DNA from: Escherichia phage vB_EcoM_ESCO56
Strand: one strand, 5' to 3'
Length of the DNA stretch: 64,000 nucleotides
Sequence record: OM386665.1
The notes under the pieces are model-generated. The model worked only from the letters and a program-made list of their open reading frames with translations, was not told where the DNA came from and made no database searches. The translations under genes and the position numbers were made by a program. Position 1 is the stretch's first letter; every line of letters starts with the position of its first letter. Shown piece after piece: positions 3,919 to 40,120 of the stretch.

Positions 3919-3994
3919 TGGAGAATCCGAAGGGACTTGAACCCTTATAAACCTGTTTTGCAGACAGGCACATATCCATTTCTGTCACGGATTC
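3919..3994 (-). tRNA. tRNA-Cys (anticodon GCA)
   Basis: Hand-folded: acceptor GAATCCG/CGGATTC, anticodon loop CTGCAAA, T-arm AAGGG-TTCAAGT-CCCTT, discriminator U, encoded CCA. Confidence 0.8.
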
Positions 3995-3999
3995 AAAAT

Positions 4000-4092
4000 T
4001 GGAGGAAGATACCAGACTTGAACTGGTACACCGATTTCTCAGCTACTGGCAGTTTAGCAAACTGCTCCCTTACCTTTTAGGGTTAATCTTCC
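4000..4092 (-). tRNA. tRNA-Ser (anticodon GCU), class II with long variable arm
   Basis: Acceptor GGAAGAT/ATCTTCC, 3-bp D-stem, anticodon stem GCAGT/ACTGC with loop TTGCTAA, about 21-nt variable arm, T-loop TTCAAGT, encoded CCA. Confidence 0.7.
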
Positions 4093-4093
4093 A

Positions 4094-4828
4094 TTATCTT
4101 TGTAATGCGCTCTTCATTTCTGGTGTTGCAATAGTATCAATCACACCAGTTTTACAAGCATCATCAAACCAGTCTGGTAAGATACCTGCTAAGAACCCAT
4201 TGATATTCGTTTTAAGGTACTCTGCAATAAGGGCAGCTTCTTCTTCAATCATCTGCACAACTTCATCTGCATAAGCTGTAATCTTTGAGATACCTTCATT
4301 AATCTTACTAACAGCCTGATTAGCTAAATCAGAAATAGTCTCAAGACCCTCATCAATAGCGTCTTGTAAGTCACTTAACACACCGTTAACACTGTCTAGT
4401 GTGCTGTTAATCATGTCAATAGCTTGCTGACCATACTCTGTAGCAACACCCATAATACCACTAAATGGTGTACAACCAACTTGTTCTCCTGCTGCACCCA
4501 TAACATTGGAGTATCCCTTTGCTACCTGCATACGTGATGAAAACTCATCAATAGACTTTTGACCGTAGTCTGTTAGGGTCTTAGTAGTTGCTGTAGTGCT
4601 TGTAAGGCTTGTTGTAAAACTGTTTAGAAGGACTGTTGTAAGTCCAGCAGCAACAAGCTTCTCCTTCATTGTAGGGTCTGTTACAGAGCTAATAGAGCTT
4701 ACAAGTGATGTAGAGGCAGCTACGGTTCCACCGAGAACTGCTGCACCAGTAATAAGTGGGTTAGAAAACCCTCTACCGGTTTTTAAGAGATTAAAAATCT
4801 CCTTACCTTGTTCTGTCATCTCTTTCAT
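4094..4828 (-). CDS. hypothetical protein (Ser/Thr-rich, coiled-coil C-terminus)
   Basis: Track ORF 4094..4876 overlaps the tRNA at 4845-4923; trimmed to ATG at 4828 (MKEMTEQ...) with AAAGGTG RBS. Confidence 0.55.
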   Translation of the reverse strand: MKEMTEQGKEIFNLLKTGRGFSNPLITGAAVLGGTVAASTSLVSSISSVTDPTMKEKLVAAGLTTVLLNSFTTSLTSTTATTKTLTDYGQKSIDEFSSRMQVAKGYSNVMGAAGEQVGCTPFSGIMGVATEYGQQAIDMINSTLDSVNGVLSDLQDAIDEGLETISDLANQAVSKINEGISKITAYADEVVQMIEEEAALIAEYLKTNINGFLAGILPDWFDDACKTGVIDTIATPEMKSALQR

Positions 4829-4844
4829 TAAGCACCTTTGAAAT

Positions 4845-4923
4845 TGGTACTCCATATCGGATTCGAACCGATACATAACACAGATTTTAAGTCTGGCCTC
4901 TCTGCCAATTGGAGTAATGGAGC
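4845..4923 (-). tRNA. tRNA with anticodon UAA (Leu-decoding) but class-I length
   Basis: Acceptor GCTCCAT/ATGGAGT, Leu-like D-arm (3-bp stem, loop CAATTGGCAGA), anticodon loop CTTAAAA, short variable loop, T-arm ATCGG-TTCGAAT-CCGAT, A73, CCA. Confidence 0.65.
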
Positions 4924-4925
4924 AT

Positions 4926-5001
4926 TGGCGGGGGATGTTGGAATTGAACCAACTTCTTCGATTTCAAAGACCGAGGTTTTAACCTTGTAAACTAATCCCC
5001 T
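4926..5001 (-). tRNA. tRNA-Gln (anticodon UUG)
   Basis: Anticodon stem TCGGT/ATCGA with loop CTTTGAA, T-arm GTTGG-TTCAATT-CCAAC, discriminator G; 1:72 apparently unpaired. Confidence 0.75.
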
Positions 5002-5009
5002 TTAAATCT

Positions 5010-5567
5010 TTACTTTCTCAGTGGATGAATAAAGAATGCCAACATAACTCTTTCCCTTGAGAATGCTCTTTCTTCTGGGACAACGCTTTTTAGTTTCCAT
5101 CCAATATAAATTCTCCAGTAAAACTGTTTACCAAAGATTTTAATTGATGGGATAAAAGCGAATAATCCCCAAGCATTGCTATTCCACATTAGGAGATAAC
5201 CAGTCTGATTATCTTCAGGGTCAGAACTTACGTTGATATTACCTTTCCACTTAGTAACATCTTTTACATCTCTTCCTAATACATGGTAAGAGAAGTTATA
5301 AGCTTTGTTTCTCCAGAGCCATCCAACTCTCTGCATGTAGACACCCAGCTTACCAATCTCTCTAATCTTAGCCCAGCGTTTGACGTGGCCTTCATCACCA
5401 TCAATCGGGTTGTCATAGGTCTCCATCCATCTGAATCCAAAAGGTAGATGTCCTTTCTTCTCGCTGTAGAATGGAACCACGAAAGGTGCTAAGATGACTG
5501 CTAGGGTTGCTGCAAATGGTTCTAGTAAAGCTAGGAAAATCCATGAAGCATACTTCAAATATCTCAT
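5010..5567 (-). CDS. hypothetical protein (hydrophobic N-terminus, probable membrane protein)
   Basis: 185 aa ORF with AAGAGG RBS 9 nt upstream of ATG at 5567; N-terminal hydrophobic stretch WIFLALLEPFAATLAVILAPFVVPF. Confidence 0.6.
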   Translation of the reverse strand: MRYLKYASWIFLALLEPFAATLAVILAPFVVPFYSEKKGHLPFGFRWMETYDNPIDGDEGHVKRWAKIREIGKLGVYMQRVGWLWRNKAYNFSYHVLGRDVKDVTKWKGNINVSSDPEDNQTGYLLMWNSNAWGLFAFIPSIKIFGKQFYWRIYIGWKLKSVVPEERAFSRERVMLAFFIHPLRK

Positions 5568-5586
5568 CTAAATAGCCTCTTAAGAT

Positions 5587-5664
5587 TGGTGTTCCAAGAC
5601 GGATTCGAACCGTCACTAATACAAGGTTTGAGCTTGCATCCTCTGCCAATTGGGATACTGGAAC
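5587..5664 (-). tRNA. tRNA with anticodon CAA (Leu-decoding) but class-I length
   Basis: Acceptor GTTCCAG/TTGGAAC, D-arm TCC-CAATTGGCAGA-GGA, anticodon stem GCAAG/CTTGT with loop CTCAAAC, T-arm GACGG-TTCGAAT-CCGTC, A73, CCA. Confidence 0.65.
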
Positions 5665-5665
5665 A

Positions 5666-5740
5666 TGGTACTCACTAAAGGACTTGAACCTTTTTCTTCA
5701 TCTTGTAAGGGTGATGTTTTACCATATAAACTAAGCGAGT
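5666..5740 (-). tRNA. tRNA-Val (anticodon UAC)
   Basis: Acceptor ACTCGCT/AGTGAGT, D-stem GTTT/AAAC, anticodon loop CTTACAA, T-arm AAAGG-TTCAAGT-CCTTT, A73, CCA. Confidence 0.75.
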
Positions 5741-5835
5741 GTAGAAGAGGTCTGAAGTTGTGCCGCTAACTCAACTCCGTGGAATTTGTTACGGTCTTCA
5801 GTTGACACCAGCGGTCTTTCACTTGACCTCTGAAT

Positions 5836-5912
5836 TGGTGCTGCTCACAGGACTTGAACCTGCATTTCCATCCTTACAAGGGATGTGTAATAGCCAATTA
5901 TACGAAAGCAGC
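5836..5912 (-). tRNA. tRNA-Thr (anticodon UGU)
   Basis: Acceptor GCTGCTT/GAGCAGC, anticodon stem CATCC/GGATG with loop CTTGTAA, T-loop TTCAAGT, A73, CCA. Confidence 0.75.
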
Positions 5913-5919
5913 ATTAATT

Positions 5920-5996
5920 TGGTACACCTAGAGAGATTCGAACTCACACTGAGCAGATTCTAAGTCTGCTGCCTCTACCAGTTGGGCTATAGGTGC
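5920..5996 (-). tRNA. tRNA with anticodon UAG (Leu-decoding) but class-I length
   Basis: Acceptor GCACCTA/TAGGTGT, D-arm GCC-CAACTGGTAGA-GGC, anticodon stem GCAGA/TCTGC with loop CTTAGAA, T-loop TTCGAAT, A73, CCA. Confidence 0.65.
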
Positions 5997-6074
5997 ATTA
6001 AATCTTTTTAGAGAACTTCTAAGAACCTAAGCAACAAGGTTCCACAACAAGCTGTAATAACCTTAGAAGCCCTC

Positions 6075-6250
6075 TAAAAAGACCTAAAAAGGTCTTTGCA
6101 TAGTCTTGTTTAATCCGGTGACTAGAACCTTTGGAGAGCTTGATATTATCTCTTCTCCGTGACACCTGCTAGGTGCTTTATGAGTGTGTACGACAATACA
6201 CGCGGGATACCAAAGCAACACCCTAATGAAGCTTGGCTTTAAATCTTATT
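6075..6250 (-). ncRNA. candidate small structured RNA between tRNA genes, ending in an intrinsic terminator
   Basis: No tRNA fold found. Minus-sense sequence carries hairpins GTGTA-TTGTCG-TACAC, CACC-TAGCA-GGTG, GGAGA..TCTCC, then AGACC-TTTTT-AGGTCT followed by TTTT (6075-6096). 5' end not defined. Confidence 0.3.
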
Positions 6251-6253
6251 AGG

Positions 6254-6341
6254 CGGTAAGTAAAGGAGTCGAACCCTCACCGTATCTCTACAGTGGCAAC
6301 TGTTTTCAAGACAGTTTGGCTACCATTAGCCGCTACCTACC
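6254..6341 (-). tRNA. tRNA-Ser (anticodon UGA), class II
   Basis: Acceptor GGTAGGT/ACTTACC, anticodon stem ACTGT/ACAGT with loop CTTGAAA, about 20-nt variable arm, T-loop TTCGACT, G73; CCA not fully encoded. Confidence 0.7.
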
Positions 6342-6354
6342 CCTAATAAGACTT

Positions 6355-6437
6355 TGGCATGGGACGGAGGAGTTGAACCCCTTTGAAACGGTGTTGGAAG
6401 CCGTTGCTCATGCCTTAGAGTCTTAACATCGTCCCAT
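6355..6437 (-). tRNA. tRNA candidate, anticodon probably CCA (Trp); D region about 7 nt longer than canonical
   Basis: Acceptor ATGGGAC/GTCCCAT, T-loop TTCAACT, G73, CCA; anticodon register inferred from distance to T-loop (loop TTCCAAC); D-arm could not be folded canonically. Confidence 0.4.
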
Positions 6438-6580
6438 ACTATAATTCGAAGCTTACCGTATTATCTCAACACTGTAAAGCCCCTTCTCAGATTATTTACA
6501 TGTTCTGGAAAACATGAGATACAGACCACCTCCCTACAGGAAGACCCGCTTAGGTCGTCTAAGTAATCTGCTAACTAAAT

Positions 6581-6662
6581 TGGTCGAGGCGGCAGGACTC
6601 GAACCCGCATACTCCACTTACTCGGTTAACGTCTGTTTAGAAGACAGATGAGATACGCCCCG
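6581..6662 (-). tRNA. tRNA-like element (acceptor and T-arm present, anticodon-like loop CUUCUAA; no D-arm resolved)
   Basis: Acceptor CGGGGCG/CGCCTCG with one G-U, T-arm GCGGG-TTCGAGT-CCTGC, A73, CCA; only internal hairpin is TCTGT-CTTCTAA-ACAGA placed too far 5' for a canonical tRNA. Confidence 0.3.
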
Positions 6663-6910
6663 TAATTATCTTTAAAGACTCTCTTAGAAAGCCCTTAAAG
6701 ATGCCCACCTTATTAATCATACCGTGGGCTAGTACGCCAAATTCTTTGATGAGGGATTGGAAGACCTCACTGGTGTTTAGCCTATCAAGCTACTGCCAGA
6801 AAAACATTGTCGTTTGCATTTATTTTAAATTTGCAAAATAGACGCTACGCAACGAAAACTAAGGGTACTATAAAGTGGTCACATCACTATTCTGCTACAC
6901 TTCCATTAAA

Positions 6911-7050
6911 TTATCTTTGTAGATAAGCTACCCAGACTTGCTTAAGGTCTGTAGCGATGTGACTTTTTGGGTTTAAATCTAGAATTTACCCTTTCACCCT
7001 TTGTGGTCGCATACTCACAGGTAAGCTTAATAACTTATCTACAAAGATAA
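6911..7050. repeat. long inverted repeat (17-bp perfect arms, about 106-bp spacer) in tRNA-array spacer
   Basis: TTATCTTTGTAGATAAG at 6911-6927 is the exact reverse complement of CTTATCTACAAAGATAA at 7034-7050. Confidence 0.8.
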
Positions 7051-7098
7051 TTACCAGACCGTTGTTTATCATCTTAACTAGATATCTCATAAAGTGTT

Positions 7099-7186
7099 TG
7101 GTGTGCCGTGTAGGAGTCGAACCTACCGAGTCTCAATGACAAGGGATTTACAGTCCCCACCGCTACCATCTACGGGATAACGACAC
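7099..7186 (-). tRNA. tRNA-Tyr (anticodon GUA), class II
   Basis: Acceptor GTGTCGT/ACGGCAC, anticodon stem GGGGA/TCCCT with loop CTGTAAA, about 14-nt variable arm, T-arm GTAGG-TTCGACT-CCTAC, A73, CCA. Confidence 0.8.
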
Positions 7187-7255
7187 ATTTAATTTCTATT
7201 CAGGCTAAGGACTTGCACCTTACAAATCGGTGAGCAATCGCTTCTCTCCTGAATT

Positions 7256-7332
7256 TGGCGGTTAGTCAGGGATTCGAACCCTGTGCCATTCGCTTAACAG
7301 GCGACCGCACATACCTTATGTGCTTCCTAACC
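7256..7332 (-). tRNA. tRNA-Asn (anticodon GUU)
   Basis: D-stem GCAC/GTGC, anticodon loop CTGTTAA, T-arm CAGGG-TTCGAAT-CCCTG, G73, CCA. Confidence 0.8.
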
Positions 7333-7416
7333 ATGTTTAGTATTACCAGACCGTATCTTTCAATTTTTCCGCTAAAAATTTAATAAACATTGCTGTAAAC
7401 GGTCTTCTGTAAAATT

Positions 7417-7493
7417 TGGAGGCGGGTGCAGGAGTCGAACCTGCCGATACCATGCTAATGAGACATGTGAGACGCCCTTTCTCTATACCCGCA
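7417..7493 (-). tRNA. tRNA with anticodon CAU (Met, fMet or Ile2)
   Basis: Anticodon stem CATGT/GCATG with loop CTCATTA (position 37 is U, unusual), T-arm GCAGG-TTCGACT-CCTGC, CCA. Confidence 0.65.
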
Positions 7494-7623
7494 ATTCTTA
7501 ATGACCAGACCAAATCTCTTCTTTGTCCGATTTACCTTCAGATGAATAAGATTAAGTTTGCTGTAATTGGTCTTCTGTCAAAACTGGCGTTCCAGAAGGG
7601 ATTTGTCTACTGGAACATTAATT

Positions 7624-7700
7624 TGGTCTCTGTTGGAGGACTTGAACCTCCGGCCTTACCGCCCCAAACGGAACGCTCTACCAAGCTGAGCTAAACAGAG
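7624..7700 (-). tRNA. tRNA-Pro (anticodon UGG)
   Basis: Acceptor CTCTGTT/AACAGAG, D-stem GCTC/GAGC, anticodon loop TTTGGGG (G37), T-arm GGAGG-TTCAAGT-CCTCC, A73, CCA. Confidence 0.8.
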
Positions 7701-37595: not shown

Positions 37596-37659
37596 ATAGT
37601 TACCTCACCAATAAAAAGGTGATGTAAGCCTATCAAAACCCACACCACCTTGTCAAGTT

Positions 37660-38607
37660 TTACATAGAAACCCTATCCTTAATTTCTGCCATCTTAGCGT
37701 CATTCATTCGAGACTGACCTTTAATTTTTGTGAATGACAAGTACCCGCACACCCTGTTAATCACAGAGATATCGTGTGAATGACAAACCTCACATTCTTC
37801 AACATCAGCCTTTGGTCTGTTACCACAATGTTCACAGATTGCTAAGTCAAAGTTAAGTCCCTGATAGAAACCTTTCAACATCCCCCTTGTAATACAACTT
37901 TTAAGTGCTGATAAGTTTTCTGGATTAGCTACCCTTACATACTGGATTCTGCCGCCTCTACAGATATGGAAGAAGGGTTCTTCTAAGTCCTGCTTCTCAA
38001 ATGGTGTAATGTCTGCTGCAACATTCATATGGAAACTGTTTGTAAAGTATTCCTTGTCAGAAACACCTTTGATAACACCAAACATATCTCTGAACTGTTT
38101 TAGCTGAGTCCCACAAAGTGATTCTGCTGGAGTGCCATAGACTGCATATAAGAAGCCATCTTCATTTTTAAACTCTTCAGTTTTCATGTTGATGTATGCC
38201 AGAACATCATATGCAAAACTACAGCTTCCAACTTCATGGAGTCGTTTACCCTCAGCAAGAACAGACAACTCATCAAGAGCAGTAACCCCAAAAGAGGCTG
38301 TGAAAGACTTCACGATATCCCAACCAACCTTATCAGTAGGCTTCTTAGTCCCTTTGTACAGACCACCTTGCGTAAATGCAAGAGGGTTAGAACTTGCTGG
38401 CATATTAGCAATCATTTCGTAACGTTTCTTGTGGAAGCTGCGAATCATCTCTAGGTGCTTATCAAGCTCTTTCCAGAAATCTAAACCATTCTCTTTGGTG
38501 TACTGGTAAATCATTGGTAAGTTCAAAGATACAGCACCAATGTTAGCACGACCTACATAAAACTCTTCACCATGTTCGGTGTGGTATGGTGATAAAAATG
38601 CTCTACA
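37660..38607 (-). CDS. nrdD: anaerobic ribonucleotide reductase NrdD, exon 2
   Basis: C-terminal part with glycyl-radical motif RVCGYL and Cys cluster CEHCG...CEVC; reading frame extends upstream of the track start to the proposed 3' splice site. Confidence 0.75.
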   Translation of the reverse strand, partial: CRAFLSPYHTEHGEEFYVGRANIGAVSLNLPMIYQYTKENGLDFWKELDKHLEMIRSFHKKRYEMIANMPASSNPLAFTQGGLYKGTKKPTDKVGWDIVKSFTASFGVTALDELSVLAEGKRLHEVGSCSFAYDVLAYINMKTEEFKNEDGFLYAVYGTPAESLCGTQLKQFRDMFGVIKGVSDKEYFTNSFHMNVAADITPFEKQDLEEPFFHICRGGRIQYVRVANPENLSALKSCITRGMLKGFYQGLNFDLAICEHCGNRPKADVEECEVCHSHDISVINRVCGYLSFTKIKGQSRMNDAKMAEIKDRVSM

Positions 38608-38923
38608 CTTGTTGTTCAGGTAAGTTCGCTAAGCTTACCCCGCTTTATTCAAGCTGCTTACTGTCGCCAGTAAGTCCAGACTATATCTTCTACTTATTTC
38701 TAAGTAGCGTACCATTTCGAGTCGCTTGACCCTACACCGCTACATTCATCACGGTTAGTCGTTCGGCATTTAGATGTACTCAAACTCATATTCGAAGTTA
38801 TTCGGTATGTAAGACTCCTACGTTGTATATTTTCTTACATCGTACATCATTTAGCACAGGATTGTCTACATCTGTAGAGTTTCCCTGTTTAGGCACGTTT
38901 TAGATGAGCTATAGAGCTTGTTA
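38608..38923 (-). ncRNA. group I self-splicing intron in nrdD (ORF-less)
   Basis: Separates two nrdD halves in different frames; contains P-like AACAGGGAAACTC, Q-like AATCCTGTGC, R-like GAACGACTAA and S-like AAGATATAGTC (R/S form GACUA/UAGUC P7); U before 5' splice site, G before proposed 3' splice site. Splice sites approximate. Confidence 0.7.
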
Positions 38924-40120
38924 ACCCATCGGTGAAATAACCTTACCAGAACGCTCAAAAGCCTCTGCTACAGCACCATGACCAGATACACTTAAGAAAT
39001 CTGGATACATTGCTTTAGAGCAACACTCAATGGCTTTACTGTACAGGTGTCCTTGACAGATATCCTCATCGTGTCTCTTCTGGTCATAAATATAAACCAG
39101 TTTAGGGAATACAACAGGCTTCTTGCTCTTACCTTGTCCATTCATACGAACATCTAGGAGAGTGCTCGCAATCATGTATTGCAGTCGGTTATCTTCATTA
39201 GACATATCTGAGTCAAGTAACCCGAATGTCAAAGTTGTGAATGCAAAATCCCCACGGCTACAAGGTACAGTATTTAGTTTCATTTCAAGTGACTGGAAAC
39301 CTTGAGTCAGTTCAATCTGTAGCTGCTCCATGACATAATTGTGGTAATGTTCTTTAGGAATACCATAAGATGCTGCTTTCTCAGCATGATAGCGTAGAGA
39401 CTTCTTAGCATACGGCACAAGTACCTTATCAATCTCTGCTAAAGTAAAACCACCAAATTGCTGTGCAGTTGCTGAAAGAACTACGTCACCAATAACCTGT
39501 AAGGCCGACAGTACAGACTTCGGTTCACAATATTCAATGCCAGACATTTCAAAGCCACCTTTCAGGACTTTACCAATGTCAAACAGACAACAGTTGATAC
39601 CACCAAAAATTAGGTCTCTTAAATCATGGATATAGATAAACCCTTTTTCAATGGCTTCAAGTTCCTCTGGTGTTAAATGGTACTGTTTAAAGATTTCTTT
39701 AGTCAGATAACCACGAATAATTGAGCCTTTTGTAGAAATTAAACTGCTGTCAAAGTTAGCATTCTCTCTGTCACCTAAGAAGAGTGTATCTTTGGTCTTC
39801 TGGTAAAGTTCATCCCAATTTTGAGCAACTTCTTTACGGTAATTTCTATATGTTGAGTAAGACTCATAAATCTCGTGGTTGACTTCTGCCAAAGCACCCT
39901 CAACAATACTGTGAATATCATTTACTGAAATGAGTAAATTATTCTGCTTAGTGGATTTTACCAGAACCCTCATAAATGCTGACTCAAGAGCTTGGGTAAC
40001 ATCTGGTGGAAGCTCTTTATAACCAACTCTGTTAGCTGACTTTGTGACTGCTGTTAAAACTTTTTTGATATCAGGTTCTTCGAGTGAGCCATTCTTTTTA
40101 ATAATCTGTACTTTGTTCAT
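38924..40120 (-). CDS. nrdD: anaerobic ribonucleotide reductase NrdD, exon 1
   Basis: 399 aa N-terminal part beginning with ATP-cone-like MNKVQIIKKNGSLEEPDIKKV; spliced product predicted about 714 aa. Confidence 0.8.

Follow-up and report, generated by a model that had tools for sequence, protein, structure and literature searches.

The td intron of phage T4 is a classic self-splicing group I intron of subgroup IA2, which in the classification of Michel and Westhof is defined by two extra helices, P7.1 and P7.2 (the T4 td/nrdB/sunY type). T4 nrdD, the host gene of the sunY intron, is interrupted after codon 180, and the endonuclease gene of this intron (I-TevII), annotated as GIY-YIG, follows the catalytic core. 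A survey of phage RNR genes named nrdD as the one that is most often split (PMC3653736). In phages UAB_Phi87, HB-2014 and JH2, nrdD was reported to be split by a homing endonuclease gene with 53% identity to the endonuclease of phage JSE (PMC4837284). Felix O1 has no introns according to its authors (PMC3185647), and phage SPJ41 was described as having 'two introns' among its ncRNAs, with no detail given (PMC9951933). Our search of the literature found neither a splicing experiment for any Felixounavirus nrdD intron, including the one described here, nor a description of an ORF-less form of this intron. The element described here is a group I intron of an ordinary and well known phage type and is nothing new in kind. 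Its relevance is mostly one of annotation: about 90 Felixounavirus records divide nrdD into two genes or label it 'similar to', whereas the correct annotation is one intron-containing nrdD with a joined CDS.

The window, by which we mean the entire 64-kb stretch of DNA analysed, is Felixounavirus (Felix O1-like phage) DNA. Over the 3.5 kb around the intron, many Felixounavirus genomes, among them those of Salmonella phage Mushroom, UAB_Phi87 and Escherichia phage momo, match the window with 94-96% identity. The minus strand carries nrdB, a gene for a glutaredoxin, nrdD and nrdG, and nrdD is present as two exons (Table 1). Exon 1 consists of 399 codons, ends with ...ISPMG and encodes the ATP-cone and the first part of the NRDD domain; its frame is closed by an in-frame UAA (38923-38921), which is formed by the first three bases of the intron. 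Exon 2, the coordinates of which include the stop codon, begins with UGU, the codon of Cys400. The 316 nt that separate the exons (38923..38608) cause a frame shift of 1 between them. Two nrdD halves in different frames, about 316 nt apart, had been noticed in the initial annotation, and both the ORF list and an alignment with the nrdD of phage wV8 confirm this arrangement. The gap between nrdD and nrdG, which in the window is 64 nt long (37596-37659), is a second variable spot of the operon. In wV8 it contains four small ORFs in about 1 kb, and in Mushroom a free-standing endonuclease gene with an annotated NUMOD3 domain.

The intron boundaries were set by alignment to the uninterrupted 714-codon nrdD of wV8, a close relative, which reads ...ISPMGCRAFLSPY... 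across the insertion point. Compared with this gene the insert is exactly 38923..38608, 316 nt, with U at position -1 and G as the last base. The intron starts with UAA and ends with ...ACAAG, its terminal G being 38608. The junction ...ISPMG/CRAFLSPY... predicted from the sequence at the outset, with U at the 5' splice site and G at the 3' end, is thus exact in the wV8 alignment. The joined exons encode a 714-aa NrdD without a stop codon, of which 695 of 714 residues (97%) are identical to wV8 NrdD, and the spliced protein has one Pfam NRDD match (residues 119-712) that spans the junction. The insertion point is between the codons for Gly399 and Cys400. The aligned motif in T4 NrdD is PMGC(290)RS, and Cys400 is the equivalent of T4 Cys290. 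The T4 protein has Cys at 290 and Gly at 580, which are the active-site cysteine and the radical glycine in its structure (Logan et al. 1999). The intron therefore directly precedes the codon of a catalytic residue. Such a location is common among phage group I introns.

The initial annotation had suggested a search with the Rfam group I model as a check. RF00028 (Intron_gpI) matches 38657..38981 on the minus strand with 53.5 bits, which exceeds the gathering score of 50 by only 3.5 bits; the E-value is 9e-11 for both strands of the window and 1e-12 for a stretch of 751 nt. The ends of this match are not the ends of the intron, for it takes in 58 nt of exon 1 as the P1/P2 of the model and halts after P9. 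An E-value scan of the whole window with Rfam did not find a second intron. Among ten related loci searched at the gathering threshold, Rfam found only the T4 nrdD, phiA009 and FBPa36 introns, and missed the endonuclease-bearing Felix-type introns as well as those of JSE, nepoznato, F97 and T4 td and nrdB; those recovered were only the introns with a core that is not split by an ORF. The boundaries of the JSE, nepoznato, F97 and Felix-type introns were taken from protein alignments, because Rfam missed these introns. The marginal Rfam score is the one point in favour of a chance resemblance to an intron within a frameshifted or disrupted gene. However, removal of the insert is precise and colinear with wV8, covariation is strong, homology to the T4 td intron is evident and the same element recurs in 93 phage records. 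The colinearity, the covariation and the 93 records already refute this explanation, the probability of which we regard as negligible.

The secondary structure of the intron was drawn by hand and consists of P1, P3, P4, P5, P6, P6a-c, P7, P7.1, P7.2, P8, P9, P9.1 and P9.2. The S-like element AAGAUAUAGUC (38679-38689) and the R-like element GACUA (38756-38760), which the initial annotation had pointed out as the two sides of P7, are both present and pair. The 5' strand of P3 is at 38892-38897 and its 3' strand at 38708-38713. P4 is formed by 38883-38888 with 38856-38861, P5 by 38874-38878 with 38865-38869, P7 by 38756-38760 with 38679-38683, and P8, closed by a GAAA loop, by 38701-38707 with 38690-38696. 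The loop of P9 is a GCGA tetraloop. A fold of the 316 nt by energy only (MFE -80.9 kcal/mol, z = -3.13 relative to shuffles) recovered every helix except P1 and the pseudoknotted P7.

Table 1. Features of the interrupted nrdD gene, in window coordinates
Feature	Position	Strand	Evidence
nrdD exon 1	38924..40120	-	ORF list; wV8 nrdD alignment; Pfam on spliced protein
Group I intron, 316 nt, IA2-like	38608..38923	-	Rfam RF00028; wV8 boundaries; covariation; MFE fold
P10 intron strand GCUCUAUA (intron 7-14)	38910..38917	-	sequence reading
Internal guide GCUCAU (intron 15-20)	38904..38909	-	sequence reading; same guide in JSE, nepoznato, F97
P3 5' strand, P4 and P5	38856..38897	-	covariation; fold; coordinate placement
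P6/P6a/P6b/P6c arm, once the site of the endonuclease gene	38766..38855	-	P6a covariation; fold; coordinates
HNH endonuclease gene remnant	38770..38820	-	alignment with Mushroom, EC106 and ORF-less variants; translation
Catalytic core (P7, P7.1, P7.2, P3 3' strand, P8)	38679..38760	-	Rfam; covariation; fold; coordinates
P9, P9.1, P9.2 and 3' tail to terminal G	38608..38674	-	covariation; fold; coordinates
nrdD exon 2	37660..38607	-	ORF list; wV8 alignment; T4 NrdD comparison; translation

Covariation was examined in an alignment of six introns (window, Mushroom, JSE, nepoznato, Vibrio phage F97 and T4 td), in which the long P6a loop, the place of the endonuclease gene in the relatives, had been replaced by GAAA beforehand. 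With a structure derived from one of only six sequences, and a td P1/P2 region that is not truly aligned, the 70-pair structure is 95.9% paired, compared to 34-41% after a shift of the 3' partners by 1-3 columns, and 33 of the 70 pairs have compensatory changes on both sides. None of 500 shuffles reached any of the five measures. All 7 pairs of P6a covary, as do 4 of 6 in P3 and 4 of 6 in P9.2; P7 is invariant in all six sequences. P7.1 (ACCG/CGGU) and P7.2 (GGGUC/GACUC), each with compensated changes, lie between P7 and the 3' strand of P3, as in the IA2 subgroup. Four independent lines, namely the Rfam match, the intronless homolog, the covariation and the homology to the td intron and to other nrdD introns, support the interpretation of 38608-38923 as a group I intron without an ORF and with PMG/CRAF as its junction.

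The guide GCUCAU pairs with the last six bases of exon 1, AUGGGU (38924-38929), to give P1 with a U(-1).G15 wobble at the splice site. It is found at an equal distance from P3 in JSE, nepoznato and F97, where U(-1).G15 is conserved. The shorter P1 proposed originally, GGGU with GCUC, was right as a pairing, but GCUC is present in two copies, of which the second (intron 15-20) aligns with the guide of the relatives. The upstream copy (intron 7-10) provides an alternative and weaker register of only 4 bp, and both registers result in identical splice sites. The element GCUCUAUA, directly 5' of the guide, is complementary at 8 of 8 positions to the start of exon 2, UGUAGAGC (38600-38607). A P10 strand immediately 5' of the P1 guide is the expected layout of a group I guide. 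The chance of finding an 8-bp P10, with G.U allowed, is by our own estimate about (6/16)^8 = 4e-4. P10 was checked sequence by sequence because the splice-site ends are out of register in the alignment. The 8-bp pairing supersedes the ACA/UGU originally suggested for P10, which is the version in JSE and nepoznato; F97 likewise has a short P10, compared with the 8 bp of the window. At the 5' end of the window intron (38904-38918, minus strand) there is a near-tandem repeat of the guide, AGCUCUAU followed by AGCUCAUCU, which supplies both the P10 strand and the P1 guide. A single copy is present in JSE, nepoznato and F97.

The initial annotation had also allowed for a 3' splice site 21 nt upstream, which would give ...PMG/RTYLNNKCRAF.... 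This site is preceded by G and would leave the reading frame open. However, the seven extra residues before the cysteine are absent from wV8, T4, JSE, nepoznato and F97. The site falls within the P9.2 loop, and compensated changes are present in 4 of the 6 pairs of this helix. The 8-bp P10 aligns the downstream site instead. With no homolog that carries the extra residues and a position inside a hairpin, the upstream site was rejected, and we consider its use very improbable.

The T4 td intron is 71% identical to the window intron over about 160 nt of the core. The two share the P3-P9.2 architecture with P7.1 and P7.2, as well as an in-frame UAA from the first three intron bases. They differ in their host genes, in the presence of P2, which td has and the window intron lacks, and in the type of endonuclease, which is GIY-YIG for td (I-TevI) and HNH for the Felixounavirus relatives. 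The T4 nrdD intron (105 bits with Rfam) is a group I intron in the same host gene, but its insertion point is about 110 codons upstream of that in the window and its endonuclease gene is not in the P6 loop. The window intron does not share the insertion site of the T4 nrdD (sunY) lineage.

Related introns are found at the same site in other phage families. In JSE (Krischvirus), nepoznato (Phapecoctavirus) and Vibrio phage F97 the codon boundary is identical (PMG/CR or YMG/CR), exon 1 ending with ...MG and exon 2 opening with CRS.... All three have the P1 guide GCUCAU and a homologous core, and the JSE intron is 77% identical to that of the window. Unlike the window intron, they keep a homologous HNH_3 endonuclease gene with an I-HmuI-NUMOD in the P6 loop, and many helix changes relative to the window are compensated. 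With close relatives of the intron at this codon in three further phage lineages, the site is a neat example of how introns are transferred between phages that are not related, here next to the codon of a catalytic residue. Around intron positions 151-195 (window ~38729-38773), in the P7/P7.1/P7.2 region, a stretch of 42 nt is 97.6% identical to unannotated places in numerous Tequatrovirus genomes and in phages of 135-143 kb. These matches probably mark further related introns.

Within the Felixounaviruses, the nrdD introns of Mushroom, UAB_Phi87, JH2 and VSe102 occupy the same site, are 95-99% identical to the window intron outside the endonuclease gene and share the exon-2 flank allele of the window. 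In these four the P6 loop contains an intact 154-aa HNH_3 gene, whereas the window has a 426-nt deletion and a mutated start. The same intron with the intact gene, 742 nt in total, is found in Mushroom and many other Felixounaviruses, and the window intron matches it on both sides of a clean in-frame gap of 426 nt (142 codons). The initial annotation was correct in stating that no homing endonuclease is encoded inside the intron, and alignment with Mushroom and EC106 adds that a remnant of one is present. The remnant retains a ribosome-binding site, UAGGAG (38815-38820), and a dead start at 38803-38808, where AUG CCA has become AUA CCG. The deletion junction is between 38803 and 38802. Beyond it are the last ten codons and the stop of the gene, NNFEYEFEYI* (38770-38802), which overlap the 3' strand of P6a. 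The intact endonuclease gene that distinguishes a mobile group I intron is not present in the window intron.

EC6, D1-2, IME338 and SP4 also have ORF-less introns with the same deletion junction, in which the start is still AUG CCA. All of the ORF-less introns examined therefore appear to go back to a single deletion. The window intron is not primitively ORF-less; its ancestor was mobile and carried an endonuclease gene, which was lost by deletion. Other states of the endonuclease region are found in related phages. Escherichia phage EC106 (L002:2350-2622) has a full-length HNH gene with a one-base insertion, annotated as a 90-aa fragment, which is a decaying copy. The ORF-less intron of Salmonella phage vB_SAg-RPN213 (L013) is only 292 nt long, since a further deletion of 24 nt has taken away the 3' strand of P6b along with the former ribosome-binding site.

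Seven ORF-less sequences were compared. Their substitutions are in the P6 arm, in the loops L5, L9 and L9.2 and in the exons; the only substitution in the other helices is one G-C to G.U change in P9.2, and the catalytic core has none. A fixed core together with a drifting P6 arm is the pattern that selection for splicing would be expected to produce. It has a direct bearing on the idea that the element is a splicing-dead relic, which would make nrdD either a pseudogene or a gene for two polypeptides that assemble, as in Aeromonas phage Aeh1 with its split nrdA. Three points fit such a relic: the endonuclease gene of the intron is gone, related GenBank records annotate two separate nrdD CDSs (or a misc_feature), and split RNR genes that function without splicing have been described (PMC3653736). 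However, the core is identical across the ORF-less variants while the P6 arm drifts, and both exons are intact, the protein being 97% identical to its uninterrupted homolog. Furthermore, the first in-frame start within exon 2 is 27 codons past the junction, so that a C-terminal polypeptide translated separately would not include the catalytic cysteine. We consider the relic improbable.

The best explanation, to which we assign a probability of about 0.92, is that the element is an nrdD group I intron that lost its endonuclease gene by deletion and is spliced to give a 714-aa NrdD. The splicing chemistry, and splicing in vivo, are presumed by analogy with what is known of group I chemistry. Pairing of the guide GCUCAU with the end of exon 1 would give P1 and place U(-1) in the U.G wobble, and a free guanosine bound in P7 would attack the 5' splice site. 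P10 would then be formed by the adjacent GCUCUAUA and the first bases of exon 2, the terminal G would enter the P7 site, and the exons would be ligated as ...PMG-CRAF.... On unspliced transcripts ribosomes would be expected to halt at the UAA of the first three intron bases. The ancestral intron had a gene for an I-HmuI-like HNH homing endonuclease in its P6 loop, which a single in-frame deletion of 426 nt removed. With this gene deleted, the intron can no longer drive its own homing, and it would be maintained through vertical inheritance or through recombination in co-infected cells.

The phage collection contains 93 records that hold at least 80% of the intron, and 61 that hold the endonuclease segment, which leaves about 32 that are ORF-less. 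The nrdD region is matched at 80% identity or more by about 289 records, and hence about two thirds (~200) are without the intron, Felix O1 itself among them. The first 45 nt of exon 2 (38563-38607, minus strand) differ from intronless wV8 at 13 of 45 bases (29%), whereas every other interval within 450 nt on either side differs by 2-8%. They change three amino acids, with H408, T409 and H411 in place of the F, N and D of wV8. Furthermore, a 421-nt query matched intronless phages in the exon-1 flank only. The start of exon 2 probably represents a co-conversion tract or an endonuclease target that has diverged. It is conceivable, if rather doubtful, that the ORF-less intron is a non-autonomous mobile element that is still spreading among Felixounaviruses in trans. 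The HNH endonuclease of a co-infecting relative would cut intronless nrdD alleles, and during repair the ORF-less intron could be copied along with the exon-2 flank that is distinctive of it. If this were true, the ~32 ORF-less, ~61 endonuclease-bearing and ~200 intron-free records would be a snapshot of a live homing cycle, running from gain through endonuclease decay to loss.

The Felixounavirus nrdD site as a whole presents several stages of the homing cycle: the empty site, the intact gene, the frameshifted gene, the deleted gene and the eroded P6 arm, with imprecise loss as a possible further stage. Salmonella phage ST11 (MF370225; L003:2501-2599) has no intron, and the first 8 bases of exon 2 are also missing. 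The sequence reads ATGGGTTA/ATTTTTATC, which leads to a stop codon, and the exon-2 allele is that of intron-bearing phages. The nrdG of ST11 is also annotated in two pieces. This state is either imprecise intron loss or an assembly error. Two unannotated records, MG065664 and MG065668 (Campylobacter phages A132 and A126), contain a Felixounavirus nrdD-nrdG region at 94.5% identity, and the A132 record carries the ORF-less intron. Both are probably mislabelled or mixed assemblies.

Elsewhere in the window, Rfam located a cluster of 12 tRNA genes on the minus strand (3922-7700). Eleven of these are above the gathering score, and the twelfth (6584-6662) was found in the E-value scan. A long-armed tRNA at 6254-6341 also has a sub-threshold tRNA-Sec-like match.
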